From positions 9,328-49,327 of the forward strand of contig MFXH01000010.1 of NCBI GenBank assembly GCA_001788795.1: 40,000 bases of DNA, written 5' to 3'. The notes beneath the pieces are model-generated. The model did no database searches, was not told where the DNA came from, and was given only the letters and a program-made list of their open reading frames with translations. The number at the start of each line of letters is the position of its first letter. Positions within the stretch are counted from its first letter, which is position 1. Positions 11,367 to 28,619 of this stretch are shown here, piece by piece. The stretch comes from Candidatus Peregrinibacteria bacterium RIFOXYA2_FULL_41_18 (lineage in GTDB: Bacteria; Patescibacteriota; Gracilibacteria; UBA1369; UBA12470). The position numbers and the translations under genes were made by a program.

Positions 11367-12644
11367 ATGAACATTCTCAAAGAAGTCTTAAGTCATGAAG
11401 TGATGCCGTCCATGGGTTGCACAGAACCCGTGGCGGTTGCGCTTGCGGCGGCTCATGCTAGTCGTGCTGTCGGTGGTAAGGTTTGGCGAGTTGTTGCCGA
11501 ATTGGATCCGGGGACTTTTAAGAATGGAATGAATGTATTTATTCCGGGTACTAATGGGGCTGTCGGCATACCTATAGCGATGGCTCTCGGTGCTATTTGC
11601 GGAGATCCTAAGAATGGACTCAATTTACTCAAAAATATAGATTCGAAATGCCTGAAAGAGGCTGAAAAACTTGTTGCTCAGCATGAGATTTCCATCAAGC
11701 CGAATTTCTCAAAAGATTATCTTTATATAAAAGTAAAAGTTAAGACTGATAAGGGTGAAGGAATCGCGAAAATCGTTAGAGGACATACAAATCTCGTCGA
11801 GCTGAAAAAAAATGGCTTGCGAATAAAAGGTACCGGTGCGAAAACCGGCTGCGAGGTTGAAAATTACAGGGAGTTTTTGAGAAAATTAAGCATAAAAGAT
11901 CTTATAAAAGCTGCTGAAAATGCAGACAAGAAAGAGCTCGCATATATGAAGGAAGGTGTTGAAATGAATCTCAAAGCATCAAAAGAAGGCATGAAGTACA
12001 AAGGGTTCGCTCATCAAATTTCTCAAATGGTTAAATCAGGTGTTTTGAAAGATGATTTTTTCTCTAAAACAAAGGTAATCGTTTCTGCGGCTTCCGATGG
12101 ACGTATGGCCGGAATGAGCCTTCCCGTAATGAGTAGCGGAAGTTCCGGTAATCAAGGAGTTGTAGCCGTCCTCGTACCTTACCTGTTCGGAAAAGAAAAC
12201 GGAGTTGCCAATGAGAAGATAATGAAAAGTATCGCCTTATCTCACCTATTGAATGCTTATGTAAAAGCTTTTGCCGGAGAACTCTCCCCTATCTGCCAAT
12301 GTGCGATTGCAGCAGGAGTTGGTGCGGCCGCAGCGTGCGTTTATCAACGCAAAAACGATATGAAATTGATTGGGCACGCAATAAATAATGTTGCTAACGA
12401 TCTTGGCGGAATGTTCTGCAATGGTGCAAACCTCGGATGTGCCATAAAAGTAGCCAGTTCCGCTGAAGCTGCCATCACATCGGCATTGGTTGCTCTCAAT
12501 GGATTCTGCATTTCCGATTCAAACGGAATCATTGGTGCCACGCCTGAGGAAACCCTGCAGAATCTTGCCAAAATAACGTGCGAAGGTATGGGCAAGACTA
12601 ATGAAGTTATTCTCGGGATTATGAAGAGGCAGGCGGAGGTGTAG
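11367..12644 (+). CDS. UPF0597/YhaM-like protein (serine dehydratase alpha-like, L-cysteine desulfidase family)
   Basis: 425 aa with the N-terminal PSMGCTEPVAVALAAA motif characteristic of this family. Confidence 0.8.
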   Translation: MNILKEVLSHEVMPSMGCTEPVAVALAAAHASRAVGGKVWRVVAELDPGTFKNGMNVFIPGTNGAVGIPIAMALGAICGDPKNGLNLLKNIDSKCLKEAEKLVAQHEISIKPNFSKDYLYIKVKVKTDKGEGIAKIVRGHTNLVELKKNGLRIKGTGAKTGCEVENYREFLRKLSIKDLIKAAENADKKELAYMKEGVEMNLKASKEGMKYKGFAHQISQMVKSGVLKDDFFSKTKVIVSAASDGRMAGMSLPVMSSGSSGNQGVVAVLVPYLFGKENGVANEKIMKSIALSHLLNAYVKAFAGELSPICQCAIAAGVGAAAACVYQRKNDMKLIGHAINNVANDLGGMFCNGANLGCAIKVASSAEAAITSALVALNGFCISDSNGIIGATPEETLQNLAKITCEGMGKTNEVILGIMKRQAEV

Positions 12645-14859: not shown

Positions 14860-14934
14860 GCAGGTATCGTATAGTGGCTATTATGCAGCCTTGCCAAGGC
14901 TGAGAGACGGGTTCGATTCCCGTTACCTGCTCCA
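14860..14934 (+). tRNA. tRNA-Gly (anticodon GCC), CCA encoded
   Basis: Hand-folded. Acceptor gcaggta/tacctgc, anticodon stem cagcc/ggctg with loop ttGCCaa, T arm acggg-ttcgatt-cccgt, discriminator T, then CCA. The D stem has one GU pair and one mismatch. Confidence 0.92.
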
Positions 14935-15025: not shown

Positions 15026-16348
15026 TTAAAATTCTTCACATCCGATTCTTCCGCCATCCAATTCATAATCCATTTTAAGCCAACTGAAATCCATTTCATT
15101 CGCTTGAGCGCAAAACTCTTCCGGTTCAAGTTCGTATTCGACACCGAAAACAGCTTTGTTTTGATCTATAAATTCAGTTAATGACTCGCACTCGTCATAT
15201 TCGAAGCATTGTTCATTCACGGCAAAATCAAAGTAATCAACTAAGTCATCGATTTGGTCCAGTGCGTTTTTAAGTCCCACGGATAAATTTCTTTCATGAG
15301 CTTCTTCTGCAATCCATTTGCTATAAATAATCTGATCATCATAAGTCAAATCAAATCCGCTATCATTCGAATATCCATCCATATTATCAGGCTCTACACC
15401 ATCACATTCTTTCTCTACGGCCAAATCCAGCCTATCTTCCATTATTGATGCAAATTCTTGATAACTTGAAACATCGAGCCATTTTTCATCTTCCCATCCT
15501 TCAAGAGTTTCTCCCAAAACTTCTTCCGGAAAATCTTCGGCATCATCTCGAAATTCCTCAAAACTTCCGGCTGAAAAATAACAAATAACTTTTTTATTTT
15601 CCGAATGCAAATCATCGATCACGCTCTGAGGAGTGTCGAAAAGATCAATATCGTACATATCAACATCATAATCCGTATCTATATCTCCCGATAATTGCCA
15701 TTGCCATGAAGTTTCCGGAGTCGGTTGGTACCAAGCAGCATCATCATTAAAAATCAAAACATCATCTTCATAAATCATCGAATCAGAATCCAATATGTTT
15801 TCTCTTAGCCTATAAATCATTTCCACCATATCTCCACGAGTAATTTCCTTATCAATCTCGGTAATTGTTGTAGGGATTGCGTTCTTGTCTGATAACTCCT
15901 GTATAAAAGGTTGATACCAAATATCCCAATCCGAATTTGTCTCAATCTCAAATCCAAGGAGAATGATTTTTGCAGCTTCGACAAAGGAAATGTCATATTC
16001 AGGATGGAAAAAACCGTCAGGATACCCTTCTATTATCAAATTTGTTTTCGCCGTGCATACATATTTTGCAAACCATTCGTTTGATACATCGGGAAAGCAA
16101 TTTTCTCCTGATATTTCTTCCGAATCAAGAATGGATTCGATTATTATTTTTACGAATTCCGCTCTGTTTATGTTGTCGTCAGGACGAAAAGTATTGTCAT
16201 CGTACCCCTCAATAATTCCTTCTTCTTGTGCATATAAAATTGCTTCATAAAACTGATTTCCGCTATTAACATCTGAAAAATAACCGTAAGAAGGCATTAT
16301 TTGCACGAAAAACAGGAATACTATTATGAGTTGTAATGTTTTTTTCAT
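15026..16348 (-). CDS. Secreted SLH-domain protein with a GH114 (endo-alpha-1,4-polygalactosaminidase-like) catalytic domain
   Basis: Signal peptide, then SLH motifs (FSDV...FRPDDNINRAEFVKII). The GH114 signature runs WQWQL...VICYFSAGSFE...DGVEPDNMDGY...GLKN. Confidence 0.85.
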   Translation of the reverse strand: MKKTLQLIIVFLFFVQIMPSYGYFSDVNSGNQFYEAILYAQEEGIIEGYDDNTFRPDDNINRAEFVKIIIESILDSEEISGENCFPDVSNEWFAKYVCTAKTNLIIEGYPDGFFHPEYDISFVEAAKIILLGFEIETNSDWDIWYQPFIQELSDKNAIPTTITEIDKEITRGDMVEMIYRLRENILDSDSMIYEDDVLIFNDDAAWYQPTPETSWQWQLSGDIDTDYDVDMYDIDLFDTPQSVIDDLHSENKKVICYFSAGSFEEFRDDAEDFPEEVLGETLEGWEDEKWLDVSSYQEFASIMEDRLDLAVEKECDGVEPDNMDGYSNDSGFDLTYDDQIIYSKWIAEEAHERNLSVGLKNALDQIDDLVDYFDFAVNEQCFEYDECESLTEFIDQNKAVFGVEYELEPEEFCAQANEMDFSWLKMDYELDGGRIGCEEF

Positions 16349-17479: not shown

Positions 17480-18640
17480 ATGCGTAAAAAATATTTCGTC
17501 ATTCAGTTGGTACTATTATCGTTTGTTATTGGCGCTTTTGGCTGTGCCGAAGAGACACAACAGGATCAAGTTGTTGTTCCTGACGTACTTGATGTTTCCG
17601 AACAACTTCCCGTACCGGAACTGACGAGTCTCGCATCCTATGAATTTCAGGACTCAACTCATCGACCCGAAATTTTATTTTATGAAAATAAACTTTATGT
17701 GCTTGTTGTTGATCACGATTTTCAACAAGATATTAGTATTAAACATCAGGGATATATTTATGACGTTTCCGATCCTCTGAGTATTGATTTCGACAACCCC
17801 GATGTGAATTTTGTCATTTCAAAAGAAACTGACGAATATGGAAGTCCTTCCGATCATCGCGTGGCAATCGTAAACGATGAGTTATGGGTTGTTTTTCAAT
17901 CATCTATAGTCGATGAGGCGAAGAGAGAGGAATGTGTGGGTGGACCTCTCGAACCTTGCGTAGAAAGCCAGCATTTGATGTTTACGAGATTCACTCTCGA
18001 TGGAGAAGAAATTTTGACTACGGAAATCGCCAGCACTACGGAATTCCCAGAAGATAATTATCCAGACATGTCCGTTGTTGCCAACGGAGATACGCTGCTT
18101 GTCAGTACAGGTACATCCGATCTGGGATTGAAAATAAGGGAAGTTGATTTGGATGGGGAGATTTTGAACACTTACGAATATCAAACTTCTACCGATGGAA
18201 TCCCCGGTAGCATCGGGAACAGTTTGTTCCGTGGAGAAGATGGTAATTTGCTTGTGTTTAGTGGCACTATGAATCAGACGAGTGTCACCGTTCTTGATGA
18301 GAATTTTGAAGCTGGGAATGCCTTGTTATTTGATCTTCCCGACGATGAAAATACTTTTCAGACCGGAGTTGATTATAAAGATGGTTATTATTATGTCGGA
18401 TACAGTGCTCGAGAAAAAGGTGATATCGCAATTGAAACAAATCCCCTCTCGCCTCGCATGATTATACTTAATCAGGATTTAGAAGTCGTGAAAACGATTT
18501 CGATTTCAGAAGAGGCCGGACATGGACACGTTCATCCTTCAATCGTCTTTGTGGAAGATTATTTATTCTACGCGTGGAGCAAGTCCGAGAACGGAAAACC
18601 TCAGGTGATTATAGAGATTTTTGAGGACGCAAACTCCTAA
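17480..18640 (+). CDS. Lipoprotein, hypothetical (probable beta-rich fold)
   Basis: Signal peptide with GAFGC, 386 aa, no recognised family. Its 3' end overlaps ilvC by 32 nt in convergent orientation. Confidence 0.6.
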   Translation: MRKKYFVIQLVLLSFVIGAFGCAEETQQDQVVVPDVLDVSEQLPVPELTSLASYEFQDSTHRPEILFYENKLYVLVVDHDFQQDISIKHQGYIYDVSDPLSIDFDNPDVNFVISKETDEYGSPSDHRVAIVNDELWVVFQSSIVDEAKREECVGGPLEPCVESQHLMFTRFTLDGEEILTTEIASTTEFPEDNYPDMSVVANGDTLLVSTGTSDLGLKIREVDLDGEILNTYEYQTSTDGIPGSIGNSLFRGEDGNLLVFSGTMNQTSVTVLDENFEAGNALLFDLPDDENTFQTGVDYKDGYYYVGYSAREKGDIAIETNPLSPRMIILNQDLEVVKTISISEEAGHGHVHPSIVFVEDYLFYAWSKSENGKPQVIIEIFEDANS

Positions 18641-19658
18641 CCGTCTTGCCGGCTTGCCACATCTCGGAGTCGCCAATTTCTTTCAGCTCTTTTTCAAGTT
18701 TCGCTCTATAGTCAGGCGCGCTATTTGCCTTGAGCACTATTTCGGTTTCGTGTCCGCTTGCTACGCTATCATATAGACGCGTGAAGACCGGTTCGACAGC
18801 TTTTCTGAATTCATGTCGCCAATCCAGAGCGCCTCTTTGGGCTGTTGTGGAGCAGTTTGCGAACATCCACTCCATGCCGTTTTGATCGATAAGCGGAATA
18901 AGGCTTCTTGTAGCCTCTTCCACTGTTTCGTTGAACGCTTCGCTCGGCGTGTGTCCGCGTTTGCGAAGTTCCGCATATTGCGCCTCCATAATACCGGCGA
19001 TAGCACCCATAAGAACTCCCCTTTCTCCGGTCAGGTCGCTGTAAACTTCCTTCTGAAAAGTTGTCTCGAACATAAATCCCGAACCTATGCCCATGCCTAG
19101 CGCGAGTGTGCGTTCTTTCGCTCGACCTGTTGCATCTTGAAAAACCGCGAAACTCGCATTAACACCTTTCCCTTCGAGAAATAATTTCCTGACAAAAGCT
19201 CCCGGACCTTTTGGCGCAACCATTATTACATCTATTCCTTCCGGTGGGATAACGCCTGTCTGTTCCTTATAAACGATTGAGAAGCCGTGTGAAAAATAAA
19301 GTGCTTTCCCTTTTGTAAGATATTTTTTTATTGTTGGCCAAAGTTCTTTTTGACCTGCGTCCGAAAGGAGATAACAGAGTATCGTACCTTTTTCGCAAGC
19401 TTCTTCTATCGGAAAAAGCGTCTTGCCTTCGATCCAGCCGTCTTTTACGGCTTTGTCCCATGAATCGCCACCTTCTCTCTGACCGATTATTACATTAAAT
19501 CCATTGTCTCTTAGATTTAGTGCTTGACCCGGACCTTGTACTCCGTAGCCGATCACTGCGATAGTTTCATCTTTTAGAGTTTCGAGTGCTTTTTCCATTG
19601 GGAACTCTTCGCGCGTGACAACAGGTTCGATAGTGCCGCCGAAATTCATTTGAGGCAT
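18609..19658 (-). CDS. ilvC: Ketol-acid reductoisomerase (class I)
   Basis: 349 aa with a GYGxQGxxxALNLRDxG Rossmann motif and a conserved C-terminal knotted domain. Confidence 0.95.
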   Translation of the reverse strand: MPQMNFGGTIEPVVTREEFPMEKALETLKDETIAVIGYGVQGPGQALNLRDNGFNVIIGQREGGDSWDKAVKDGWIEGKTLFPIEEACEKGTILCYLLSDAGQKELWPTIKKYLTKGKALYFSHGFSIVYKEQTGVIPPEGIDVIMVAPKGPGAFVRKLFLEGKGVNASFAVFQDATGRAKERTLALGMGIGSGFMFETTFQKEVYSDLTGERGVLMGAIAGIMEAQYAELRKRGHTPSEAFNETVEEATRSLIPLIDQNGMEWMFANCSTTAQRGALDWRHEFRKAVEPVFTRLYDSVASGHETEIVLKANSAPDYRAKLEKELKEIGDSEMWQAGKTVRSLRPQKSL

Positions 19659-19713: not shown

Positions 19714-20091
19714 TCACTTCCTTTGCGCTGTTGCTTCGATTTCGACTTTTACATCTTTTGGCAGGCGTGCGACTTGGACAGTGGCGCGTGCAGGAGGGTT
19801 CGACACGAAATAAGAACCGTAGATTTCGTTCACCGCCGCAAAATCGTTCATGTCAGCCAAAAAAATTGTCGTCTTAACGACATTCTCAAGAGTTGTTCCG
19901 GCAGCTTCCAGTACAGCTTTCAGATTTTCTAGAACCTGTGTCGTTTGAGCCTTGATATCGCCCTGTTCTAGCTCGCCGGTTGGTTTGAGAGGTATTTGAC
20001 CGGAACAGAAAACGAATCCGTTAACTGAGACTGCTTGTGAGTATGGCCCGATGGCTTTTGGAGCTTTGTCTGTTGAGATGATTTGTTTCAT
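19714..20091 (-). CDS. ridA: RidA/YjgF-family reactive enamine/imine deaminase
   Basis: 125 aa with [12 protein letters not shown]...GQIP...[19 protein letters not shown]. Its ATG overlaps the ilvN stop (ATGA). Confidence 0.9.
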
Positions 20092-20540
20092 AATGGAAGT
20101 GTTGTTATTCCGCTTCGTGAAATTTCAATGAGTCCGAGCGGTTTGGATTTTTCTATAAATAAGTCTACTTCATCCGGCGTGCCGATGAAACCTACAATTA
20201 TTTCGTCATTTGCCTTGTAAAGCTCTTTGCAGCGCGGAAGCTTGTCGAGCATACCTTCTTTAGATCTGAATTTTGCCAATAACATTTCGCTCATTATCGA
20301 TTTGTCCCGAGCGATCTCTACAACTTCTACGACCTCTATCAGTCTATCTATTTGCTTGATGATTTTTGCCGTTCTTTCTTCCGTGTCATCAATCGTTATC
20401 GCGAATCGCGACATATTAGGCTCGAGCGTCGGCCCGGCAGTGATGCCGACGATGTTGAAGCGCTTGCGCCTGAGGAGAGAGGTAACTCTATTCAGTACGC
20501 CCGGTTTGTCTTCCGATAATAATAAAATTGTACTTCTCAT
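20088..20540 (-). CDS. ilvN: Acetolactate synthase small (regulatory) subunit
   Basis: 150 aa with an N-terminal ACT domain ([20 protein letters not shown]). It lies 2 nt after ilvB. Confidence 0.88.
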
Positions 20541-20542
20541 AA

Positions 20543-22216
20543 TTATTTTCCGATTAAAGTATCTTTCAGCCCTTTTCCGGGGGCGACCATCGGGAAGACA
20601 TTGTCTTCCGGCTCAACCAAAAATTCGCAAATCACCGTGCCTTTCATATCGCGCGCGGCCTTGATTGTACTTGCAATATCCGAAGGCTTCTCACACCTCA
20701 AATGATTAAGTCCATAAGCTTGCGCTATAAGTGAAAAATCCGGACTTGTTATAGGCGTACCTTCGTAATTTTTATCATAAAATAATTCCTGCCATTGTCT
20801 GACCATTCCCAAAAATCCATTATTCATTATCGCGATTTTGATCTCGAGACCTTCTTGAACTATCGTCATCAATTCCTGAATATTCATCTGTATTCCACCG
20901 TCTCCGTTGATAAGCCAAATCTCTTCATTGGGACGCGCGAATCTTGCGCCTATGGCGGCAGGCAAACCGAAACCCATAGAGCCGAGTCCGCCCGAAGTAA
21001 GAAATTTATTCGACTCATCTTGCGGATAATACTGCGCTGTCCACATTTGATGCTGGCCGACATCCGTAACTATTATAGATTTTCCTTCTGTTATTTTGTG
21101 AAGTTCGGTTAGCATTTTCGGAACGGTAATTCTGTGCGTGTCTTTTGTCGAGAGCGGATAAGTGCGAGTCCAGCCTTCTATTTCCCCCACCCAGTCGTGG
21201 TGTTTTTTCTCCGGCAAAACCTCCAAGATTTGTTTGAGTACATCTTTTATATTTCCTACAACCGGCAGATAAGGCTTAACATTTTTCCCGATTTCCGCCG
21301 GATCTATGTCGATGTGGATTATCTTTGCGTTTTTTGCAAAAGTATCGAGACTCCCTGTTATTCTGTCATCGAAACGAGTACCGATTCCTATCACGAGATC
21401 GGCATTGTGAACCGCGAAATTCGCATAAGCCATTCCGTGCATACCGAGCATCCCATAAGAGAGTTCGTGACTTTCAGGGAAAGCGCCTTTACCCAATATC
21501 GTATGAACGACTGGGATATGACTTCTGACAGCCAATTCCCGCAACTCCTTCTCTGCGCGTGAAATGATCGCGCCATGTCCGCAGATGATTACCGGTTTCT
21601 GAGAGTTTTTTATTAAATTTACGACCTCTGTAACTGTCTTATCGTCTGTACCTGCTGGAATTTTGAAACCCGGAAGGTTAATTTTTTCAGAATAATTAAA
21701 TGAGTCCACCTGTTGCTTAAATACATTTGTCGGAATATCTATGTGGACCGGACCTGGACGACCATTTTTCGCTATATAAAAAGCCTCTTTCATAACTTGC
21801 GGAATATCGCGAGCGTCTTCTACGAAATAATTATGCTTGGTTATCGGAAGAGTTATCCCCAGAATATCCACCTCTTGAAAAGCGTCCGAACCGATCATAT
21901 CACCTCTCACCTGCCCAGTTATCGCAACCATCGGGATCGAATCCATATAGGCATCGGCTATACCTGTAACAAGATTTGTCGCACCCGGACCGGAAGTCGC
22001 AAGACAAACTCCAACCTTGCCACTCGCGCGAGCATATCCATCTGCAGCGAAAGCCGCGCCTTGCTCGTGTCTTACGAGAACATGATGAAGAGTCTTGTAA
22101 TCAGAAAAAGCATCGAAAAAAGGTATTACAGTTCCACCCGGATATCCGAACATGACGGATGTGCCTTCTGCAAGAAGGCTTTCGAGAACTATATGTGCGC
22201 CTGTGAGGGTAGTCAT
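20543..22216 (-). CDS. ilvB: Acetolactate synthase large subunit (ThDP-dependent)
   Basis: 557 aa with the ThDP motif GDGGIQMNIQEL...NN and an N-terminal GYPGG pyrimidine-binding domain. Confidence 0.95.
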   Translation of the reverse strand: MTTLTGAHIVLESLLAEGTSVMFGYPGGTVIPFFDAFSDYKTLHHVLVRHEQGAAFAADGYARASGKVGVCLATSGPGATNLVTGIADAYMDSIPMVAITGQVRGDMIGSDAFQEVDILGITLPITKHNYFVEDARDIPQVMKEAFYIAKNGRPGPVHIDIPTNVFKQQVDSFNYSEKINLPGFKIPAGTDDKTVTEVVNLIKNSQKPVIICGHGAIISRAEKELRELAVRSHIPVVHTILGKGAFPESHELSYGMLGMHGMAYANFAVHNADLVIGIGTRFDDRITGSLDTFAKNAKIIHIDIDPAEIGKNVKPYLPVVGNIKDVLKQILEVLPEKKHHDWVGEIEGWTRTYPLSTKDTHRITVPKMLTELHKITEGKSIIVTDVGQHQMWTAQYYPQDESNKFLTSGGLGSMGFGLPAAIGARFARPNEEIWLINGDGGIQMNIQELMTIVQEGLEIKIAIMNNGFLGMVRQWQELFYDKNYEGTPITSPDFSLIAQAYGLNHLRCEKPSDIASTIKAARDMKGTVICEFLVEPEDNVFPMVAPGKGLKDTLIGK

Positions 22217-22226
22217 AAACTTGTAA

Positions 22227-23930
22227 CTAGTAACTTGTAGTTTTTTGAGATGAGTGATCCTTACGGAAACGTTCCAAGACCGGTGTCGTTTTTCGTCTTG
22301 GAATTTTGATATTTTTTAATCTTTTTTTAATTTCGGTTGCGGTCAATCGTACATTCAATCGACGAGCCGGAATATCTATTTCGATAATATCTCCATCTTT
22401 TATTGCGCCGATTGCTCCACCGTTATAAGCCTCAGGTTCGATATGCGCTATGCAAGGACCCGAAGTCCCACCTGAAAATCTACCATCTGTTATCAATGCA
22501 ACCCGTGTATATCCGGCACCTTTCAGCGCGTCTGTCGGCGTAAGCATTTCCGGCATTCCTGGGGCGCCTGCCGGACCCATGAAACTCAAAACGACTGTGT
22601 CACCCTCGTGAATTTTTTTATTCTTAATCGCCTTAAGAAGAGACTCTTCCGAAGTGAAAACTTTTGCCGGCCCAGTATGCGTCATCATTTCCTCACTTAC
22701 CGCCGTTTGTTTAATGACTGAACTATGCGCAATATTTCCTTTGAGGACAGCAATTCCGCCTTGCCTGAAATAAGGTTTACTGAGCGGTCTTATCACTTCG
22801 GAATCAAGCACTTTTCCAGATGATGCTATCTGTTTTATGGTCTTGCCGTTTATAGTCGGATTATCTTTTATGTAACTGATTATTCTATTCAAAACCGCAG
22901 GAATTCCACCGGCTCTTCCGAGGTCAGCCATCTCGTGATCTCCTGCCGGAATCAAGTGGCAAATGTTTGGTATTTTTTGCGCGATTTTATCAAAAAGATC
23001 TGTCTTTATTTCTATTCCGAGTTCGTGTGCGATTGCCGGAATATGCAAAACCGCATTCGTAGAACCGCCCATAGTCATATCGACCATAATCGCGTTTTCA
23101 AAAGCGGATCGAGTCATTATTTGAGAAGGTTTTATATCTTTTTTTACCAACTCTACAATCTTTCGCCCAGATTCGTAAGCCTGTTTTTTCTTCTCTTCGC
23201 TGATTGCCAAAGTCGTTGCGCAATTCGTAACCGACATGCCGAGAGTTTCTGTTACGCAAGCCATCGTGTTGGCTGTATAAAGTCCGACACAAGAACCAGA
23301 TTTACAATTTGAACATAGCTTCATTTGAGCTTCAGCATCTTCGAGGCGCATTTTCCCCGATGCAACCTGTCCAGCATAAGCGAAACCTTGAATCGGGTGA
23401 ATTTTTTTACCACAGGCCGGAAGCGAAGCGGACGGCCCATTATTATTAGCCTGATCGCGTAAGCGATCTCCTTTCAGCTCATAAGCCTTCATCGGCCCAC
23501 CCGTTAAAATCACTGCAGGCAAATCCAATCGTCCAGCCGCCATAAGCATACCCGGAGTTATCTTGTCGCAATTTGTCACACCAACCCATCCGTCGAGCGA
23601 ATGAGAAAGCATCATGATTTCTATATTGTCCGCAATATGGTCGCGCGAAGGAAGCGATAGACGCATCTCCGCATACATTGCAATTCCATCGCAAACTGCC
23701 GGCACACCCCATTCGAAAGGGACTCCTCCTGCATCGCGTATACCCTTCTTCACTTCTTCCGTAAGAGCGCGAAGATGAATATGCCCGGGGACAATATCGT
23801 TAAACGAGTTGGCGACTCCGATGAAAGGCTTTTTGAAATCGGCATCGCACAGACCGACTGAACGAAGCAATCCTCTATGAGGAAGCGTTGCAGGATTGTT
23901 TTTCAATATGTCGGATTTAAGATGATACAT
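22227..23930 (-). CDS. ilvD: Dihydroxy-acid dehydratase, carrying a roughly 19-20 aa in-frame insertion
   Basis: 567 aa with the IlvD/Edd motifs CDKITPGMLMAA, GGPM, CxxCxSGSC..TANTM and TDGRFSGGT. There are extra residues, DRLRDQANNNGPSASLPAC, between GGPM and the Fe-S cysteine motif. Confidence 0.95.
   Translation of the reverse strand: MYHLKSDILKNNPATLPHRGLLRSVGLCDADFKKPFIGVANSFNDIVPGHIHLRALTEEVKKGIRDAGGVPFEWGVPAVCDGIAMYAEMRLSLPSRDHIADNIEIMMLSHSLDGWVGVTNCDKITPGMLMAAGRLDLPAVILTGGPMKAYELKGDRLRDQANNNGPSASLPACGKKIHPIQGFAYAGQVASGKMRLEDAEAQMKLCSNCKSGSCVGLYTANTMACVTETLGMSVTNCATTLAISEEKKKQAYESGRKIVELVKKDIKPSQIMTRSAFENAIMVDMTMGGSTNAVLHIPAIAHELGIEIKTDLFDKIAQKIPNICHLIPAGDHEMADLGRAGGIPAVLNRIISYIKDNPTINGKTIKQIASSGKVLDSEVIRPLSKPYFRQGGIAVLKGNIAHSSVIKQTAVSEEMMTHTGPAKVFTSEESLLKAIKNKKIHEGDTVVLSFMGPAGAPGMPEMLTPTDALKGAGYTRVALITDGRFSGGTSGPCIAHIEPEAYNGGAIGAIKDGDIIEIDIPARRLNVRLTATEIKKRLKNIKIPRRKTTPVLERFRKDHSSQKTTSY
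23410..23473 (+). repeat. Two-hairpin element, copy B, in frame inside ilvD
   Basis: The first 31 nt match copy A at 30 of 31 positions. Hairpin 2 is GATCGC-gtaa-GCGATC, against GATTGC/GCAATC in copy A. Both copies end in atctcctt. Confidence 0.8.
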
Positions 23931-24014: not shown

Positions 24015-25865
24015 CTAGCGCTGTTTATAATATAACATATTGTATCCGCGTTCGAACGCTTCTATCGAGGCAACAATAATATCCGGAGAAGTTGCAGAGG
24101 CAATAACCTCCGTTCCGTCTTTTGATTTAACCCCCATCCTCACCTCAACGACGGCGTCAGTACCTTTCGTTTTGATTTCGACGTTGAATGAAGTAAGCCA
24201 ACACTCAAGTTTATCTTTTTTCTGTATAGCTTTTCTTGCAGCCTTGATAATCGCATCCACCGGACCGGCGCCTTCCGCTTCGGTTTTCAAGATCTCACCC
24301 AAATAAGATACGACAACTTTCGCATGAGGTTTCTTGTGGCGAGTAACCGATAGAGCATAATCTTTCACGAAGAAAACTTTTTCCTTGCCCGTGAATTCTT
24401 TCAGCACGTTCTCGACTATATATTGCAAGTCGGCCTTTCTCATTTTGGAGACTTTTTCGTGAAAAAGTTTCACTTCCTTGCATACTTCTTTCAAGTAATC
24501 ATCCGAAAGTACAAAATTAAATTCCGACTTAACTATTTCTTTCACTTTTGCAGGTTGAGGCGTTTTCTCCCACAAGACATTCTCCTTGCCTGCAACCGAT
24601 GAAGCGCGGATTTCGTAAACTTTGTTTTTCAAGTATTTATTTATATCTTCATCAGTAGGCTCCAATACAGGAGGGTCGGGCATGATTTGAGTTGCGGATT
24701 TCGGGTCTTTCAGTCCTACTCCTGTCGCGACACAAACGACTATATCATCCGGCTTTATTATTTTTCTTTTGAGAAGTTTTTTGAGACACGCAACCGGTAA
24801 GGCCGCAGAAGGTTCAACAAATATCGATTCCTTATGAGCCATATCTTTTTCAGCTTCAAGTATCGTTATATCATCGGCCGTTTCTCCGCATCCTTTTGAT
24901 TCTCTAAGCGCATTTAATGCCTTTATGTCATCAAGTGGCTCGCCTATTCCGACCGCAGAAGCGACAGAAGCGGGTTTATCGACGCGCACATATCTTTTTT
25001 TCTTCTCGTCAAAAGCTTTCACGATAGTTGGCACCGATTCCGGCTGTACCCCTATTATACGTGGCAATTTATCTGTAAATCCCATTTCATAAAACTCCTT
25101 AAACCCTTTCCATATCGCCGAAATATTCGTGCCACATCCCATCGGAACTATTACAACATCGGGAACCTTCCAAAATAGTTGTTCCACTATTTCGTAAGCG
25201 CAAGATTTCTGCCCTTCGGCTCTGAAAACATAATCTCCCGCCAAATAAAAATTATGTTTTTTCGCCATTCGTTCACATAATTTACAACAGTCCGCATATG
25301 TACCTCTGATCTGCAATATTCTCGCCCCGTATATAAGGCTCTGCGCAAGTTTGCCGATAGGAGTTCCATCAGGCACAAGCACATAACAAGGCATGTCCGC
25401 TATCGCCGCATAAGCAGAAACCGAAGCCGCCATATTACCCGTCGAAGCGCAACAGACCGCTTTCGCTCCCAACTCTCTGGCTTTTGTAAGTTCCACTAGA
25501 GATCCCCTATCTTTGAATACACCTGTCGGATTTTCACCTTCGTTTTTTATGTAAAGCTTCTTGAGCCCCAGCTCTTTCCCAAGCCTATCGCATTTACGCA
25601 AAGGCGTTCCACCTTCACTAAGCGTAACAAGCAAGTTGAGATTTTTGAGAGGGTAAAATTCAAGATATTTCCGTGCTGAAACCGGTGCATTTCGGAGCGA
25701 ATAAAAGTTCAAGTGCGATTTCATATATTCGTAATCGTACTCGACATCAAGAGCGCCATTGCATTTCGGACATACTGTCGCAGACACCTCTTCTGTCGTA
25801 TATGCGCCACAATTGACGCACTTGAGACGATAACAGCTTGGATTTTCGCATTTTGTTTTTTTCAT
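24015..25865 (-). CDS. Threonine-synthase-like PLP enzyme fused to a C-terminal LeuA-type allosteric (LeuA_dimer-like) domain
   Basis: N-terminal Zn ribbon (CxxC...CPKC), then the ThrC motifs NPTGVFKDRGS, ASTGNMAASVSAYAA and GCGTNISAIWKGFKEF. Residues ~496-612 carry GAGPVDAIIKA...GTDAVVEVRMGV...SPDIIVASIEAFERGYN, which matches the regulatory domain of isopropylmalate and citramalate synthases. Confidence 0.85.
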   Translation of the reverse strand: MKKTKCENPSCYRLKCVNCGAYTTEEVSATVCPKCNGALDVEYDYEYMKSHLNFYSLRNAPVSARKYLEFYPLKNLNLLVTLSEGGTPLRKCDRLGKELGLKKLYIKNEGENPTGVFKDRGSLVELTKARELGAKAVCCASTGNMAASVSAYAAIADMPCYVLVPDGTPIGKLAQSLIYGARILQIRGTYADCCKLCERMAKKHNFYLAGDYVFRAEGQKSCAYEIVEQLFWKVPDVVIVPMGCGTNISAIWKGFKEFYEMGFTDKLPRIIGVQPESVPTIVKAFDEKKKRYVRVDKPASVASAVGIGEPLDDIKALNALRESKGCGETADDITILEAEKDMAHKESIFVEPSAALPVACLKKLLKRKIIKPDDIVVCVATGVGLKDPKSATQIMPDPPVLEPTDEDINKYLKNKVYEIRASSVAGKENVLWEKTPQPAKVKEIVKSEFNFVLSDDYLKEVCKEVKLFHEKVSKMRKADLQYIVENVLKEFTGKEKVFFVKDYALSVTRHKKPHAKVVVSYLGEILKTEAEGAGPVDAIIKAARKAIQKKDKLECWLTSFNVEIKTKGTDAVVEVRMGVKSKDGTEVIASATSPDIIVASIEAFERGYNMLYYKQR

Positions 25866-25952: not shown

Positions 25953-26000
25953 CTAGTAGCGGGTGTTAATAATAATCCCAATAATTGATACATTCTTCAT
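25953..26000 (-). CDS. Ile-rich leader peptide MKNVSIIGIIINTRY (15 codons plus TAG)
   Basis: ATG AAG AAT GTA TCA ATT ATT GGG ATT ATT ATT AAC ACC CGC TAC TAG. Five of 15 codons are Ile (all ATT). The stop codon forms the first 3 nt of the antiterminator strand. Confidence 0.65.
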   Translation of the reverse strand: MKNVSIIGIIINTRY

Positions 26001-26030: not shown

Positions 26031-26058
26031 ATTTTATTATGCATTTTTTTTAAGTCAA
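26031..26058 (-). promoter_or_regulatory. Putative ilv-operon promoter TTGACT-16-TAAAAT
   Basis: On the minus strand the -35 is at 26058..26053 and the -10 at 26036..26031. The predicted TSS is about 25 nt before the leader ATG. Confidence 0.5.
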
Positions 26059-26110
26059 ATCTTTTGTCACTTCTATGAATATTATTTCGCAATCTTATAT
26101 TCAACTTGTC

Positions 26111-26150
26111 GTGTCAATCGCTTGACACAGTTTCGTTTTCGTGCAATATT
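26111..26150 (+). promoter_or_regulatory. Promoter TTGACA-17-AATATT (TG-extended) with the overlapping inverted repeat GTGTCAA-tcgc-TTGACAC
   Basis: The -35 is at 26122..26127 and the -10 at 26145..26150, preceded by TGc. The 7-bp inverted-repeat arms at 26111..26128 include the -35. Confidence 0.5.
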
Positions 26151-26198
26151 CTTATCTTAATTAAGCTCTTAATTAAGCCTCTTAACCCAAACAAGTCT

Positions 26199-28619
26199 AT
26201 GAAAAGACTAGTATCTATTTTTGCCGGATTGGCAATGATGGTATCCGTTGCGGTACCGCAAGCATTCGCGTTAACACCTAACGCTTCCGCTTCATCAACA
26301 TCAGTATTGGTTGGTGAAACAATTACATTATCCGTATCAGCTACCGACTTGGCAGCGGAAACGGATGAAGCTTCGGCTATGATATATTGGGGTGATAGCA
26401 CTACGACTTCAATATTGAAATCCGAATGTTCTGTCGATACATCAACCGCATCTGCATCGTGCGTATCGGCATCTCATTCTTATGCAAGCGCCGATACTTA
26501 TACCGTTACGATCTACGTATATGAGTATGATGCCGATCTTGGCTCTTCTCCAACTGGATATGAAACTACAACTGTTGCAGTTACTGTTACGGAACCTCTT
26601 CCTGACTTGGTTATGCAAACTGTCACTTACGATCCTTCTTATAGAGATGTTACTTATACTGTTGCAAATAAAGGATCTGCTAATATCGATTCGTCAACTG
26701 CAGGTTTGAATCAACTATCTGTTGTTTATACCGATGGGACAACAGAATCTCAGACTCATAACTGGACAGTACTTTCATCTTCACTAACTGCATTCTTAAC
26801 TGTCGGCAACAGTTCCGATATCCATTATTACCTTTCCGATTCGGGTAAGATTATTGATTCTATTACGGTTTGTGCGGATTCTATCAATGTCATGACTGGA
26901 TCTGAGGCTGTAATTGAAAGCGACGAGACAAACAACTGCTCAACTCTAGAATTCAGTTATCCTGATTTATTACCTACTGCAATAACAGTAGATGAATACG
27001 GATCTTTGTCTTATACGATTGAGAATCAAGGTGATGAAAACATTGCAACCGGCTCTGTTATTGAAGCGACTATAGACATCACTCCTCCTTCTTCAGCATC
27101 TTATACATTAACCGATGTACCTACGACTTCTTCCGATCTTGCATTCGCAGGACAAGGCGGTTCAAGCACGATTGCCACTGCAACACTTGCAAGTTATGGG
27201 ATTTATACTGTCGAAGTTTGCGTAGATTCAACAGATCAAGCTGCAGAAAGCAATGAGGATAATAACTGCATAACGGCATTGGTCAATTATGCGGATCCGG
27301 CAGTATATTATTATGATCTTGGAGTAGACAATTTGACTTACAATTATGTTTTTGGCGATGATTATTATTACATCGGTTATACGGTTTCAAATCTTGGGAC
27401 TTTGGACATAGATACTTCAGTTTATGATGGAGCTAACATTTGTACTATAAATTACCTTGATGGCAGTTCCAGATCTGTTTCTTACTCTTGGCAATACTCC
27501 TCTTTAACGGAATTTTTGACTGCTGGAGGAGTGTCTTCAGATTTTTCATTCTCTTTGAGCGGTGAAGATGTTTCTACAATTGATTCGGTCACGATCTGTG
27601 CAGATGGTTCATACATCCTTGCAGAAAGCGATGAAGACAACAACTGCAACAATATACAAATCGCTTCTGATGAAGAAGAAACTCCTCAATCTACTTTCAC
27701 AGTAGAAGCAGGATCAGATCAATCTGTAACTCTTGGTACAATTGTAACTGTTAGCGCGCTTGCAACAAATCTTGATGCTTCCGCTACCGGCATTACTGCA
27801 AATATCAACTGGAACGATGGTACCCTGACTCATGTTATAGGATCTTTCGATGATGCATCAGGTGTATATCTTATAGACAATCACGAATATACGGCTGCAG
27901 GTACTTACACTGTAACTGTCGAGGCTACTCAGTATAATAACGATTCAGTCGAAATAAGCACCGTATCTGATAGTTTGACTATTACTGTTACCGAAACTGC
28001 TTCTTCAGGCGGCGGATCAAGTGGTTCAAGCAGCACTCCTACTTATGGTGGAGGTGCAGGCTCAAGTAGCAGCACGTCGTCATCTTCAAGTACAACTTAT
28101 GGTGGCGGAGACCAAACTGAAACCGTAGAAGACGAACAAGATGTTATTGTCACTGAAGACAATACCACTACAGATGTTTGCGCAGAACTTCCTTTCACTG
28201 ATGTAAGCCCTGAAGCATCTTACTATGATGCGATTTATCAGGCTTGGTGCGATGGAATCGTTCACGGAAGAACTGAAACTTTATTTGCACCGGAAGATGC
28301 GATTTTGAGAGGTGAAGTTGCCAAGGTTGTTGTAGGAGTATTCGGTTATTCAATCAATTCCGAATTGACTGAAACATCTTATAGCGATCTTGATGCAAGC
28401 GAACCTTTGGCTCCTTACATCCAATCGTTAACCGACGAAGGAATCCTTCAAGGTTATGAAAGCGATGGGACATTCAAGCTCGATCAGGCAATAACCGTTT
28501 CTGAAGTTGACTCTATCTTATCAAGACTTGGAGTCACCGACAGTATTACTGAATACAGCGCAGGCGGATATGTTACAAGAGGCAAGTTTATGGAGTTCAT
28601 TCTTCAATACCTCTATTAA
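26199..28619 (+). CDS. Large secreted surface protein: PKD-like and CARDB repeats, Ser/Gly linker, C-terminal SLH domains
   Basis: I moved the start to the ATG at 26199 (MKRLVSIFAGLAMMVSVAVPQAFA signal peptide). It has repeated PDL...ESDETNNC / ESNEDNNC / ESDEDNNC CARDB endings. The C-terminal SLH motif is FTDVSPEASYYDAIYQAW...FAPEDAILRGEVAKVV. Confidence 0.85.
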   Translation: MKRLVSIFAGLAMMVSVAVPQAFALTPNASASSTSVLVGETITLSVSATDLAAETDEASAMIYWGDSTTTSILKSECSVDTSTASASCVSASHSYASADTYTVTIYVYEYDADLGSSPTGYETTTVAVTVTEPLPDLVMQTVTYDPSYRDVTYTVANKGSANIDSSTAGLNQLSVVYTDGTTESQTHNWTVLSSSLTAFLTVGNSSDIHYYLSDSGKIIDSITVCADSINVMTGSEAVIESDETNNCSTLEFSYPDLLPTAITVDEYGSLSYTIENQGDENIATGSVIEATIDITPPSSASYTLTDVPTTSSDLAFAGQGGSSTIATATLASYGIYTVEVCVDSTDQAAESNEDNNCITALVNYADPAVYYYDLGVDNLTYNYVFGDDYYYIGYTVSNLGTLDIDTSVYDGANICTINYLDGSSRSVSYSWQYSSLTEFLTAGGVSSDFSFSLSGEDVSTIDSVTICADGSYILAESDEDNNCNNIQIASDEEETPQSTFTVEAGSDQSVTLGTIVTVSALATNLDASATGITANINWNDGTLTHVIGSFDDASGVYLIDNHEYTAAGTYTVTVEATQYNNDSVEISTVSDSLTITVTETASSGGGSSGSSSTPTYGGGAGSSSSTSSSSSTTYGGGDQTETVEDEQDVIVTEDNTTTDVCAELPFTDVSPEASYYDAIYQAWCDGIVHGRTETLFAPEDAILRGEVAKVVVGVFGYSINSELTETSYSDLDASEPLAPYIQSLTDEGILQGYESDGTFKLDQAITVSEVDSILSRLGVTDSITEYSAGGYVTRGKFMEFILQYLY

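Follow-up and report, generated by a model that had tools for sequence, protein, structure and literature searches.

A threonine synthase-derived PLP enzyme with a LeuA/CimA-type regulatory module as a candidate replacement for IlvA

The first gene of an ilv operon in Candidatus Peregrinibacteria bacterium RIFOXYA2_FULL_41_18 encodes a ThrC-derived PLP enzyme fused to a regulatory module of the LeuA/CimA type. The loss of ThrC phosphate-site residues, the Ile-sensor-type domain and the linkage to ridA and ilv genes suggest that the fusion is most likely an IlvA replacement in several poorly known microbial lineages. From sequence and genomic context, we consider it somewhat probable that the protein is an isoleucine-inhibited analogue of threonine ammonia-lyase that forms 2-oxobutanoate. 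The window analysed here is the whole stretch of 40,000 nt (GCA_001788795.1, contig MFXH01000010.1, forward-strand positions 9,328-49,327), and coordinates refer to positions within it.

The fusion gene, its operon and its leader

The operon order is fusion-ilvD-ilvB-ilvN-ridA-ilvC, with the fusion gene placed first, downstream of an Ile-codon leader and a terminator. The features of the locus are as follows.

26031..26058, minus strand: sigma-70-like promoter, TTGACT-16 nt spacer-TAAAAT; 10/12 consensus matches, a consensus match only
25953..26000, minus strand: leader peptide ORF MKNVSIIGIIINTRY*; 5 Ile, 1 Val and 0 Leu in 15 residues
25892..25963, minus strand: attenuator; terminator hairpin CCCGCU-N8-AGCGGG followed by T8 at 25920-25892
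24015..25865, minus strand: fusion gene, 616 aa; Zn ribbon, ThrC-derived PLP domain, helical linker and LeuA/CimA regulatory domain
22227..23930, minus strand: ilvD, dihydroxy-acid dehydratase; TIGR00110, 640 bits (cutoff 618)
20543..22216, minus strand: ilvB, acetolactate synthase large subunit; TIGR00118, 743 bits (cutoff 538)
20088..20540, minus strand: ilvN, acetolactate synthase small subunit with ACT domain; TIGR00119, 92 bits (cutoff 57)
19714..20091, minus strand: ridA, enamine/imine deaminase, with a 4-nt overlap with ilvN; TIGR00004, 185.8 bits (cutoff 106.25)
18609..19658, minus strand: ilvC, ketol-acid reductoisomerase; TIGR00465, 327 bits (cutoff 226)

The five genes downstream of the fusion thus each score above the cutoff of their own TIGR equivalog or subfamily model. 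The window RidA carries its catalytic arginine (R102) in a PAR motif, and its solved relatives include 2-iminobutanoate/2-iminopropanoate deaminases. No ilvA-, cimA/leuA-, thrB- or second-thrC-like ORF was found among the window ORFs of at least 110 aa. An earlier note on this DNA had described a ThrC-like PLP enzyme fused to a LeuA-type domain, standing first in a leader-attenuated operon with ilvD, ilvBN, ridA and ilvC, in a window with neither ilvA nor a citramalate synthase. The family models, the Ile-rich leader and T8 hairpin upstream of the fusion, and the ORF survey bear this description out, and every ThrC and LeuA-domain motif that it named is found in the translated 616-aa ORF.

The promoter-like site (26058-26031) is the best on the minus strand in this region and lies upstream of the leader. 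A second copy of CCCGCU (25963-25958), located over the last leader codons, could pair with the AGCGGG arm of the terminator instead of its usual partner. The duplicated arm makes the two structures mutually exclusive. On folding, the terminator appears in the MFE structure and the alternative pairing in the centroid; the leader RNA has a folding energy of -26.6 kcal/mol (z = -2.2 vs shuffles). No Rfam family matched the leader/attenuator region of the window. Ile-rich leaders also precede the fusion in L001 (MRKSIQIISIIINTRS), L002 (MKFSAKNIINLVIIITQ) and L084 (MYRYIKVNFIISIILGKPL), so that they recur in four loci spanning 42-93% identity, with a hairpin and then a T-run downstream of each. 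An Ile-codon ORF, an intrinsic terminator, a competing pairing and recurrence in relatives, the marks of a leader-peptide attenuator, are all present in the computed analysis. The arrangement resembles the E. coli ilvGMEDA and ilvBN leaders in its short regulatory-codon ORF, competing hairpins and intrinsic terminator. Classical ilv leader peptides such as these contain mixed Ile, Val and Leu codons, whereas Ile predominates almost completely in the fusion-locus leaders (5-6 Ile, with no more than 1 Val and 2 Leu).

The catalytic domain and its active site

The following features are located in the catalytic portion of the protein.

25761..25820, minus strand: N-terminal Zn ribbon C16-x2-C19...C32-x2-C35; CxxC...CxxC retained in the family consensus
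24720..25628, minus strand: PLP catalytic domain (Pfam PALP), residues 80-382; 249.1 bits, E 8e-74
25419..25445, minus strand: motif STGNMAASV, with M145 in place of Thr88 (T. thermophilus numbering)
25221..25238, minus strand: loop G210-D211-Y212-V-F-R215, in place of canonical N154-S155-V-N157-P-x-R160, the Arg alone being retained
25128..25136, minus strand: loop C244-G245-T246, in place of canonical N188-A189-G190

Motifs present in the fusion protein include the Zn ribbon, FKDRG, ASTGNMAASVSAYAA, WKGFKE and GAGPVDA. Its fold and PLP lysine are ThrC-like. The lysine, K118 (25512-25514), lies in the FKDRG motif and aligns to K61 of T. thermophilus ThrC; the catalytic domain shows 36-40% identity to solved threonine synthases in structural alignment, with a target-normalised TM of ~0.85 (Foldseek), and the Foldseek E-value is ~1e-31 for ThrC vs ~1e-19 for IlvA/TdcB. 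The AF2 model of the whole fusion has a mean pLDDT of 87.1 and a pTM of 0.79. The best NCBIfam matches are threonine synthase models, with TIGR00260 giving 242.8 bits (cutoff 167.1), although canonical Zn-ribbon ThrCs reach ~336 bits on this model vs 243 for the fusion; PRK08197 gives 301.5 bits, marginally below its cutoff of 303. The NCBIfam IlvA models score 53-90 bits vs cutoffs of 378-801 (best 90.4 vs a cutoff of 421). An IlvA/TdcB orthologue is ruled out, all IlvA/TdcB models being far below cutoff.

T88, N154, S155, R160 and N188, which we take to be the set that binds the phosphate of substrate and product in ThrC following an assignment said to come from the structures of Omi et al. 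(2003) and Murakawa et al. (2011), are identical in five solved ThrCs from bacteria to plants. In the HMMER pairwise alignment, the window protein has M145, G210, D211, R215 and C244 at these positions. R160 alone is therefore retained and the other four of five are replaced; the invariance and the replacement are measured, the phosphate-binding role assumed. A gap-free alignment moves the loop by one residue, and N154 and S155 are absent under both alignments. The replacements hold throughout the family. Position 88 is Met in 131/131 fusions vs Thr in 31/31 canonical ThrCs; D211, Y212, R215 and T246 are each found in 131/131 fusions; and G210 is invariant both in a 32-sequence family alignment and in 39/39 GDY sequences. 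S155 and N157 stand at 100% in canonical ThrCs. Position 244 is more variable, with Cys in 103/131 fusions and the canonical Asn in 3/131, next to the invariant G245 and T246. An unbiased scan of the whole domain returned six positions fixed differently in the fusion subfamily and in canonical ThrCs (T88M, F134Y, S155G, N157Y, A189G and G190T), five of them within the three altered active-site motifs. The canonical-invariant set replaced in the subfamily comprises T88, N154, S155, N157, N188, A189 and G190.

The nearest single-domain relatives are archaeal Zn-ribbon ThrCs, including that of Methanocaldococcus (L067), and they retain the full canonical motifs, which indicates that the active-site change is derived. 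The altered subfamily was monophyletic in 50/50 NJ bootstrap replicates. Judged by sequence, then, the catalytic domain falls within a ThrC subfamily that is monophyletic and whose active site has been rebuilt, a placement that is new here. The earlier note, which had listed the ThrC hallmarks, overlooked this loss of ThrC-invariant residues around the substrate-phosphate site.

Comparison with canonical ThrC (EC 4.2.3.1; TIGR00260) therefore reveals a common fold, PLP lysine and S-T-G-N and E-G-Q-K motifs, together with a Zn ribbon that is common to the fusion and archaeal canonical ThrCs. In contrast, the substrate-site residues are replaced, a C-terminal module is added, and the ridA/ilv linkage has no counterpart at canonical loci. 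A genuine threonine synthase with an allosteric domain, through which branched-chain amino acids tune the threonine supply for isoleucine synthesis, would account for the presence of the gene in ilv operons; it agrees with the top family matches and the passing of TIGR00260, with public annotation as threonine synthase (or hypothetical) and with a fold closest to solved ThrCs, and allosteric ThrCs exist, the plant enzyme being activated by S-adenosylmethionine (cited in PMC13381585). We nevertheless regard such an enzyme as unlikely, since the residues replaced throughout the fusion clade are invariant in bacterial, plant and nearest archaeal ThrCs, and a cell whose threonine synthesis was shut down by isoleucine would be deprived of threonine.

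The family-wide loss of the canonical phosphate-site residues also bears on the two chemistries that the earlier note had left side by side. It favours deamination of threonine, or of a non-phosphorylated substrate, and disfavours elimination from O-phosphohomoserine. An O-phosphohomoserine phospho-lyase would eliminate phosphate and release aminocrotonate without adding water, giving 2-oxobutanoate directly and bypassing threonine. Aminocrotonate is likewise an intermediate of ThrC chemistry, canonical ThrC yields 2-oxobutanoate as a side product, and mammalian THNSL2, a ThrC homologue, is said to have been found by Donini et al. (2006) to degrade O-phosphohomoserine to 2-oxobutanoate. The RidA and ilv context is equally compatible with this route and with threonine deamination. 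R215, the counterpart of R160, is invariant, and an anionic group could still be bound because this arginine is retained in every member. However, with four of the five canonical-invariant positions (the presumed phosphate ligands) replaced, and with the invariant acidic Asp211 among the replacements, phosphate binding should be disfavoured. Several ridA-fusion pairs also occur in small CPR genomes and on an archaeal-looking contig, and O-phosphohomoserine may be unavailable because relatives of the window organism reportedly lack most amino-acid biosynthesis and use imported amino acids (PMC4736985). We therefore consider the phospho-lyase quite unlikely.

The invariant Asp/Tyr pair and the retained Arg have the look of a redesigned pocket for a distal group. 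The source of 2-oxobutanoate might be another amino acid with a gamma or beta substituent (O-succinyl- or O-acetyl-homoserine, homoserine, cystathionine or methionine), with Arg215 binding a carboxylate, and Asp211 an amine or hydroxyl, at the distal end. In E. coli, isoleucine synthesis can be sustained by cleaving O-succinylhomoserine to 2-oxobutanoate (PMC7476758), and ThrC homologues have diverged elsewhere, to cysteate synthase (TIGR03844) and MetM (PMC12172450). This combination of substrate and pocket nevertheless appears improbable: nothing specifically favours any of the listed substrates, met genes or a homoserine acyltransferase are linked in no locus, and, of the substrates on which CPR organisms scavenging amino acids could draw, threonine is the simplest.

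As to threonine itself, a threonine deaminase activity, though weak, is seen in vitro with the canonical ThrCs of T. thermophilus and B. subtilis (PMC12172450). The slowness with which known ThrCs deaminate threonine counts against threonine deamination, as do the passing of the TIGR00260 thrC cutoff and the retained arginine. The same two enzymes and the MetM-like 'ThrC' of Microcystis illustrate that the ThrC scaffold can release 2-oxobutanoate (PMC12172450). In these homologues and THNSL2, the activity is either secondary to another reaction or directed at phosphorylated substrates, and none has a LeuA-type domain; the Microcystis protein is ~433 aa long, and ilv/ridA linkage is not reported for it.

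The C-terminal regulatory module

24018..24596, minus strand: regulatory module, residues 424-616; three linker helices and a beta-beta-beta-alpha x2 domain

Pfam LeuA_dimer (PF08502) matches residues 476-611 (nt 24033-24440) with 89.2 bits (cutoff 24.9, E 2.8e-25), spanning model positions 3-130 of 131. The AF2 model of the module has a pLDDT of 87.5, and its best 12 Foldseek matches are exclusively the Ile-bound regulatory domain of Leptospira LiCMS and M. tuberculosis LeuA. Superposition on LiCMS (3f6h/3f6g) gives a TM of 0.78-0.86 and an rmsd of 2.2-2.8 Å at 28% identity, and M. tuberculosis LeuA is matched with a Foldseek E-value of ~1e-8, the next other fold following at 6e-4. The family profile detects one solved sequence only, 3f6g (E 1.7e-14). 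The GxGPVDA and SPD motifs are conserved throughout the fusion family. Among NCBIfam models, the IPMS models score higher (77 bits) than the CimA models (44 bits), whereas the Ile-binding CimA domain comes out ahead in the searches by structure and by profile. The C-terminal ~190-220 residues are, by sequence match and predicted structure, a regulatory module of the CimA/LeuA type, and the LeuA-type assignment made earlier is thereby upheld with LiCMS, a CimA, as the closest structure.

The fusion module has the beta-beta-beta-alpha x2 fold in common with LiCMS (3f6g/3f6h) and M. tuberculosis LeuA (1sr9/3fig), and its linker helices also align to LeuA. In LiCMS and LeuA, however, the module is carried by an HMGL-like TIM barrel, and in the fusion by a PLP enzyme. 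CimA uses its PF08502 domain to sense Ile, and LeuA to sense Leu (PMC13381585). The Ile-rich leaders and the closest modelled fold, that of the Ile-bound CimA domain, point to isoleucine as the predicted ligand.

Family distribution, proposed function and significance

At least 131 full-length sequences with PALP and LeuA_dimer domains were gathered from public data. The earlier note could not tell whether this architecture had been catalogued; it proves to be common, with every public label reading 'threonine synthase' or 'hypothetical', and no functional description was found in the literature searched. Complete-genome records with the fusion include OY969931.1, CP065009.1 and OY970067.1. 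About nine distinct arrangements of the subfamily gene with ilv genes and/or ridA were seen, among them the following.

Window and L001: fusion-ilvD-ilvB-ilvN-ridA-ilvC
L084: fusion-ilvE-ilvD-ilvC-ridA-ilvB-ilvN
L094: fusion-...-ilvE-ilvD-x-ilvB-ilvN-ilvC-...-ridA
L088: ilvC-fusion-ilvD
L002: fusion-ilvB-ilvN
L011, L031 and the archaeal-looking L096: ridA-fusion, adjacent or overlapping
L090 and L092: ridA, then the single-domain form
A further arrangement: HMGL-like gene, single-domain form, ridA

The fusions in the differently ordered ilv operons (L084, L094, L088 and L002) are just 39-55% identical to the window protein, and ridA directly adjoins the subfamily gene in both bacterial and archaeal contigs (L011, L031, L096, L090 and L092). 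Clustering of RidA with threonine dehydratase has been reported (PMC4433059). Outside NC10, ridA is present at 10/17 subfamily loci vs 0/38 canonical ThrC loci (Fisher p = 7e-7, a test that overstates independence because several of the ridA-counted loci share synteny), and ilv genes are present at 6/17 vs 0/38. This difference in ridA linkage, the absence of threonine synthase among reported RidA partners and the lack of hom/thrB linkage at any locus examined all speak against the allosteric threonine synthase considered above; neither hom nor thrB is annotated close to the gene, whether in the window or in those loci that were annotated with Pfam. The ~30 NC10/Methylomirabilota loci have ridA in none and ilv neighbours in 1/30, and NC10 loci without ridA count against threonine deamination.

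Five loci (L011, L031, L092, L096 and L090) contain the ridA pair only, among housekeeping genes, and CPR organisms ferment and scavenge amino acids. At such loci at least, the enzyme could be a catabolic or detoxifying Ser/Thr dehydratase whose oxo-acid product feeds energy metabolism. We consider this highly improbable. A feedback sensor of the Ile/Leu type and attenuation through Ile codons are characteristic of biosynthesis, four further arrangements besides that of the window place the gene within ilv operons, and the ilv genes of the pair-only genomes could sit elsewhere.

The ilv/ridA linkage, the Ile leaders and the CimA/LeuA-type module together support the earlier proposal of an enzyme that forms 2-oxobutanoate at the entry to isoleucine synthesis under feedback through its LeuA-type domain. 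In the preferred reading, a ThrC-derived PLP enzyme would have changed its job and would no longer make threonine from O-phosphohomoserine. The fusion would instead dehydrate and deaminate L-threonine, the presumed substrate, to 2-aminocrotonate/2-iminobutanoate, which the RidA of the same operon would hydrolyse to 2-oxobutanoate, and IlvBN, IlvC and IlvD would carry this product towards isoleucine. The invariant Asp211/Tyr212 may assume the acid/base role of the ThrC product phosphate, and Met145 may pack against the threonine methyl group. Isoleucine would bind the C-terminal module at a dimer interface and inhibit the enzyme as in citramalate synthase. With an Ile-codon leader and a putative Ile-binding module, control would be exerted at two levels, Ile-tRNA charging governing transcription by attenuation and free isoleucine governing enzyme activity by allostery.

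Read in this way, the fusion resembles IlvA (EC 4.3.1.19) in its reaction, its place at the first Ile-specific step, its ilv operons, its RidA partnership and its end-product feedback, and both are fold-type II PLP enzymes. They differ in that the fusion belongs to another branch of the fold, has an N-terminal Zn ribbon, and carries a LeuA/CimA-type domain where IlvA has an ACT-like one. The replacement would thus be non-orthologous, with a catalytic domain taken from ThrC rather than from the IlvA/TdcB branch and a sensor taken from LeuA/CimA rather than from an ACT-like domain. The broader proposition, for which we see the chances as evenly balanced, is that of an unrecognised and widespread IlvA-replacing family. 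A ThrC lineage with a rebuilt phosphate pocket would have become a dedicated threonine deaminase, one branch of which later acquired, from citramalate/isopropylmalate synthase, the linker and regulatory module that sense Ile. The family would catalyse the entry into isoleucine synthesis in Patescibacteria, Peregrinibacteria among them, as well as in NC10/Methylomirabilota and some archaea. The invariant Asp-Tyr pair and Met would replace the phosphate ligands, the built-in carboxylate taking the role of the ThrC product phosphate.

The LeuA/CimA regulatory module appears portable, because the fusion combines it with an unrelated catalytic fold, and this portability is relevant to feedback-control engineering and Ile biosensors (compare PMC13381585). 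The occurrence of single-domain and fused forms in one clade would offer a natural series for the study of how allostery is acquired. If the proposed function is correct, the family would also be a clear natural case of reaction-specificity switching within the PLP fold. The specificity of ThrC is thought to depend on the product phosphate, and a lineage in which the phosphate site has been removed and a carboxylate installed would be a direct test of that idea. Hundreds of 'threonine synthase' database entries would then be misannotated and auxotrophy predictions in these lineages affected. Reconstructions of CPR bacteria, NC10 methanotrophs and some small archaea that count the gene as thrC would over-predict threonine synthesis and under-predict isoleucine synthesis ("missing ilvA"), and the auxotrophies and dependencies on other organisms inferred for them would change.

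The fusion gene, its operon and leader

The features at the head of the operon, together with the sole Rfam match in the window, are as follows.

24015-25865, minus strand: fusion gene, an ORF of 616 residues
26000-25953, minus strand: leader ORF MKNVSIIGIIINTRY, 15 codons, 5' of the fusion gene
14860-14931, plus strand: a single tRNA gene

The fusion protein comprises a full-length PALP domain (residues 80-382, 249 bits in Pfam) and a full-length LeuA_dimer domain (residues 476-611, 89 bits against a gathering score of 24.9), the latter bearing out the C-terminal assignment of the earlier note. The motifs read there from the sequence are all present, namely a CxxC...CxxC zinc ribbon, FKDRG, ASTGNMAASVSAYAA, WKGFKE and GAGPVDA. 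The top NCBIfam models are those of threonine synthase (TIGR00260, 243 bits, cutoff 167), and no IlvA model exceeds 90 bits (cutoffs ~380-800). The TIGR00260 score and the database annotations agree with a genuine threonine synthase that has acquired allosteric tuning; the active-site changes and the RidA linkage conflict with that reading.

The genes ilvD, ilvB, ilvN, ridA and ilvC lie 3' of the fusion gene on the same strand, and every one exceeds its curated cutoff, so that the operon stands as first proposed. The ilvN and ridA genes overlap by 4 nt, and the RidA of the operon passes TIGR00004 and contains the catalytic arginine. Among the ORFs of at least 110 aa in the window, none is like ilvA, cimA/leuA or thrB and none is a further thrC-like gene, in agreement with the initial reading that neither ilvA nor a citramalate synthase is present there.

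A promoter-like site and a GC hairpin that leads into T8 are located 5' of the fusion gene. Folding of the leader yields two mutually exclusive structures, because the AGCGGG arm of the terminator can take as its partner its own CCCGCU or a second, identical copy that overlaps the final codons of the leader ORF. Ribosome-dependent attenuation would be expected to have such an arrangement, in line with the attenuated leader of the earlier note; a search of the leader against Rfam returned no known RNA family.

The ilv operon of the window lacks ilvE. Two further genes lie ~4-7 kb from the operon: one encodes a 499-aa protein (13297-14796, plus strand) whose residues 217-409 weakly match class I/II aminotransferases (44 bits), and the other a serine-dehydratase-alpha-like protein (11367-12644, plus strand). 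Either might provide the transamination that the operon lacks. The ilv region is flanked on one side by a GH114 glycosidase with SLH repeats (15026-16348, minus strand) and on the other by an 837-aa CARDB/PKD/SLH protein (26106-28619, plus strand). These two large SLH-domain surface proteins suggest that the envelope of this Peregrinibacteria lineage is S-layer-anchored.

Distribution, active site and clade history

A word-indexed search for related proteins gave 1960 hits, of which the best 120 all combine PALP with LeuA_dimer in ~610-635 aa. They come from Peregrinibacteria/Gracilibacteria, other Patescibacteria, NC10/Methylomirabilota and MAGs, and sources that give them a name always call them "threonine synthase". 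When representatives of 50%-identity clusters were searched exhaustively, ~15 full-length fusion clusters came up, with identities down to 36%; the window protein's own cluster holds EKD64133.1 (ACD_51C) and RIFOXY entries labelled "Candidatus Peregrinibacteria". The gene also occurs in OY969931.1 (Patescibacteria, 1.37 Mb), CP065009.1 (GCA_016699755.1), ERZ1757541 contig_6554 (1.05 Mb) and OY970067.1 (NC10, 5.6 Mb), all complete or nearly so. A full-text literature search found no functional description of a ThrC+LeuA_dimer enzyme, the nearest paper dealing with a 433-aa MetM-like ThrC that lacks the LeuA domain (PMC12172450). The architecture is common but unstudied.

The catalytic domain aligns to the solved ThrCs of Aquifex, Bacillus, Mycobacterium, Thermus and Arabidopsis, and its AF2 model (pLDDT 87) superposes on solved ThrCs with a target-normalised TM of ~0.85; the ThrC fold and the PLP lysine are retained. 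The Thermus alignment set the numbering of the site (K61, S84-T85-G86-N87-T88, N154-S155, R160 and G187-N188-A189-G190-N191). Residues T88, N154, S155, R160 and N188 of T. thermophilus ThrC presumably hold the substrate or product phosphate, as reportedly seen in the complex structures of Omi and colleagues from 2003 and in the work of Murakawa and colleagues from 2011 on product-assisted catalysis. The argument is built on measured invariance and replacement, independently of these phosphate roles.

All five residues are identical in the five solved ThrCs and in 27 more canonical sequences, a set that includes the closest archaeal zinc-ribbon ThrCs, such as that of Methanocaldococcus (L067). 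The fusion family has lost four of these five canonical site residues. M145, D211, Y212 and T246 (window-protein numbering) are fixed replacements, each found in 131/131 fusions, and C244 occurs in 103/131; R215 is kept in all 131. When the whole domain was scanned without bias, only six columns proved to be at least 90% fixed within each group, canonical and altered, yet to differ between the groups (T88M, F134Y, S155G, N157Y, A189G and G190T); five of the six fall in the three altered motifs. These changes are at odds with a genuine threonine synthase. Elimination from O-phosphohomoserine is kept alive by the retained Arg215 and is disfavoured by the lost site residues together with the gain of an acidic one.

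Two single-domain ThrC-like genes of Thermococci MAGs (L054:2789-3967 and L056:169-1365) contain STGNM, TGNYHYR and GAGTH. They were rejected as carriers of the same signature because TGNYHYR has Asn at the position of the fusion family's invariant Asp, and represent a sister variant; possibly a sister subfamily in cultivable archaea, they may offer an experimental entry point.

The altered clade, termed GDY after its G210-D211-Y212 loop, is monophyletic relative to canonical ThrCs in 50/50 NJ bootstrap replicates and comprises the fusions and single-domain proteins of 390-437 aa. Since the single-domain forms branch basally and also occur interspersed with the fusions, which are monophyletic in 0/50 replicates, the active site changed first and the LeuA-type module was added later. 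Apparent secondary losses of the module followed, exemplified by P0131, a protein without the module that shares a syntenic block with a fused relative (L031).

Several neighbouring cases were noted. On the contig of P0156 (JGI sample 3300071358), a 410-aa HMGL-like gene, which corresponds to the LeuA/CimA catalytic domain with no LeuA_dimer match, overlaps the start of a single-domain GDY-type gene that is followed by ridA; this pairing may hint at the origin of the domain fusion or may place two 2-oxobutanoate routes side by side. A ridA-adjacent GDY-type gene of a Gracilibacteria MAG (L077:9977-11202) is frameshifted after ~residue 297 under codes 11 and 25 alike, which rejects a genetic-code-25 effect and leaves either a pseudogene or an assembly error. 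At two NC10/Methylomirabilota loci (L004:1291-2559 and L028:4482-5888), the fusion is directly preceded by a second zinc-ribbon ThrC-like paralogue. It was rejected as a canonical thrC, being divergent (LKDRS, VSTGNAGSS, no canonical phosphate loop), and its motifs match neither canonical ThrC nor the GDY subfamily. As another divergent paralogue, it is uninformative on whether the fusion is the sole ThrC.

The regulatory module and its effector

The full-length fold search of the fusion gave only PALP-fold matches, and the C-terminal module was therefore modelled separately. The C-terminal 193 residues (pLDDT 87.5) form three helices and a domain of two beta-beta-beta-alpha units. The best 12 PDB matches of this model comprise only the regulatory domain of Leptospira citramalate synthase and M. 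tuberculosis LeuA, the two families with which the earlier note had associated this region; the next-ranked fold trails them by five orders of magnitude in E-value. The Ile-bound Leptospira domain superposes with a TM of 0.78-0.86 and an rmsd of 2.2-2.8 Å at 28% identity. The alignment with LeuA, at 14-16% identity, includes the linker helices.

A family profile run against solved sequences detected only the CimA domain (57 bits, E 1.7e-14). In contrast, the NCBIfam IPMS models score higher on the module (77 bits) than the CimA models (44 bits). PF08502 is documented as an Ile sensor in CimA and a Leu sensor in LeuA (PMC13381585), and because NCBIfam favours IPMS whereas structure and profile favour CimA, homology alone does not settle the effector. 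The family profile of the second beta-beta-beta-alpha unit (alignment A2 positions 132-192, window residues ~555-615) also matches the anti-CRISPR protein AcrIIA4 weakly (5vzl, 5vw1; 20 bits, E 0.003), probably a chance likeness of small beta-beta-beta-alpha folds.

Four fusion-led operons are preceded by Ile-rich leader peptides almost devoid of Val or Leu, each followed by a terminator, in keeping with Ile-codon attenuation. Taken together, the leaders and the module favour isoleucine as the regulating amino acid.

Leader peptides of the fusion-led operons
Window: MKNVSIIGIIINTRY
L001: MRKSIQIISIIINTRS
L002: MKFSAKNIINLVIIITQ
L084: MYRYIKVNFIISIILGKPL

Gene neighbourhoods and proposed function

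Besides the window itself and its 93% relative (L001), the following arrangements were found.

Arrangements at loci with related genes
L084 (42% identity): fusion-ilvE-ilvD-ilvC-ridA-ilvB-ilvN
L094: fusion-rpiB-x-x-ilvE-ilvD-x-ilvB-ilvN-ilvC-...-ridA
L088 (39% identity): ilvC-fusion-ilvD, genes overlapping
L002: fusion-ilvB-ilvN
L011, L031, L096: ridA directly upstream of the fusion
L090, L092: ridA directly upstream of single-domain forms
P0156 locus: HMGL-like gene, single-domain form, ridA

L096 carries the archaeal markers RadA and Pus10. At L094 (11860-13558), rpiB, an OMPdecase-family gene and a SIS-domain gene lie between the fusion and ilvE, an insert that looks like a hexulose-phosphate synthase/isomerase pair inside an ilv operon.

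Outside the NC10 group, 10/17 distinct loci contain ridA and 6/17 contain ilv genes; canonical ThrC loci in the same scan have each at 0/38 (Fisher p = 7e-7 for ridA, an optimistic value because several counted loci share ancestry). The variety of arrangements is a stronger argument than the p-value. The ~30 NC10 loci have no informative neighbours, with no conserved amino-acid-biosynthesis gene under greedy ORF calling, which is noisy at high GC. RidA genes are consistently clustered with those of threonine dehydratase and of further PLP enzymes that produce enamines (Niehaus et al., PMC4433059), among which threonine synthase does not figure. The RidA linkage is thus also at odds with a genuine threonine synthase, and the neighbourhoods suggest an isoleucine enzyme that releases an enamine. 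Elimination from O-phosphohomoserine fits this context equally well; the host lifestyle is unfavourable to it, related Peribacteria being without most amino-acid biosynthesis and importing amino acids (PMC4736985). A catabolic role is conceivable where the ridA pair alone is seen.

In the favoured route, threonine deamination, the enzyme would bind L-threonine and eliminate water to give PLP-bound aminocrotonate, the last half-reaction of ThrC run backwards. The enamine/imine would be released and hydrolysed by RidA to 2-oxobutanoate for IlvBN. Asp211 and Tyr212 plausibly assume the acid/base role of the phosphate, as they are located where canonical ThrC holds its catalytic phosphate, and Met145 would pack onto the methyl group of threonine. 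As in citramalate synthase, catalysis would be inhibited when Ile binds the C-terminal module at a dimer interface. Canonical ThrCs exhibit weak threonine deaminase activity in vitro, a precedent for the proposed chemistry (PMC12172450). Other homoserine-derived substrates are possible, as O-succinylhomoserine cleavage sustains Ile synthesis in E. coli (PMC7476758); the present data hold no specific support for them.

The earlier suggestion of a 2-oxobutanoate-forming entry enzyme for isoleucine is supported and sharpened by the active-site changes, the RidA/ilv linkage, the CimA/LeuA-type module and the Ile leaders, all read from sequence. PLP fold-II dehydratase chemistry, LeuA-type allostery and leader attenuation are each already known; no description of their combination was found. 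The clade of the fusion is uniformly called threonine synthase in public databases, and the best description of the gene product is a ThrC-derived, probably Ile-inhibited enzyme that would form 2-oxobutanoate in place of IlvA.
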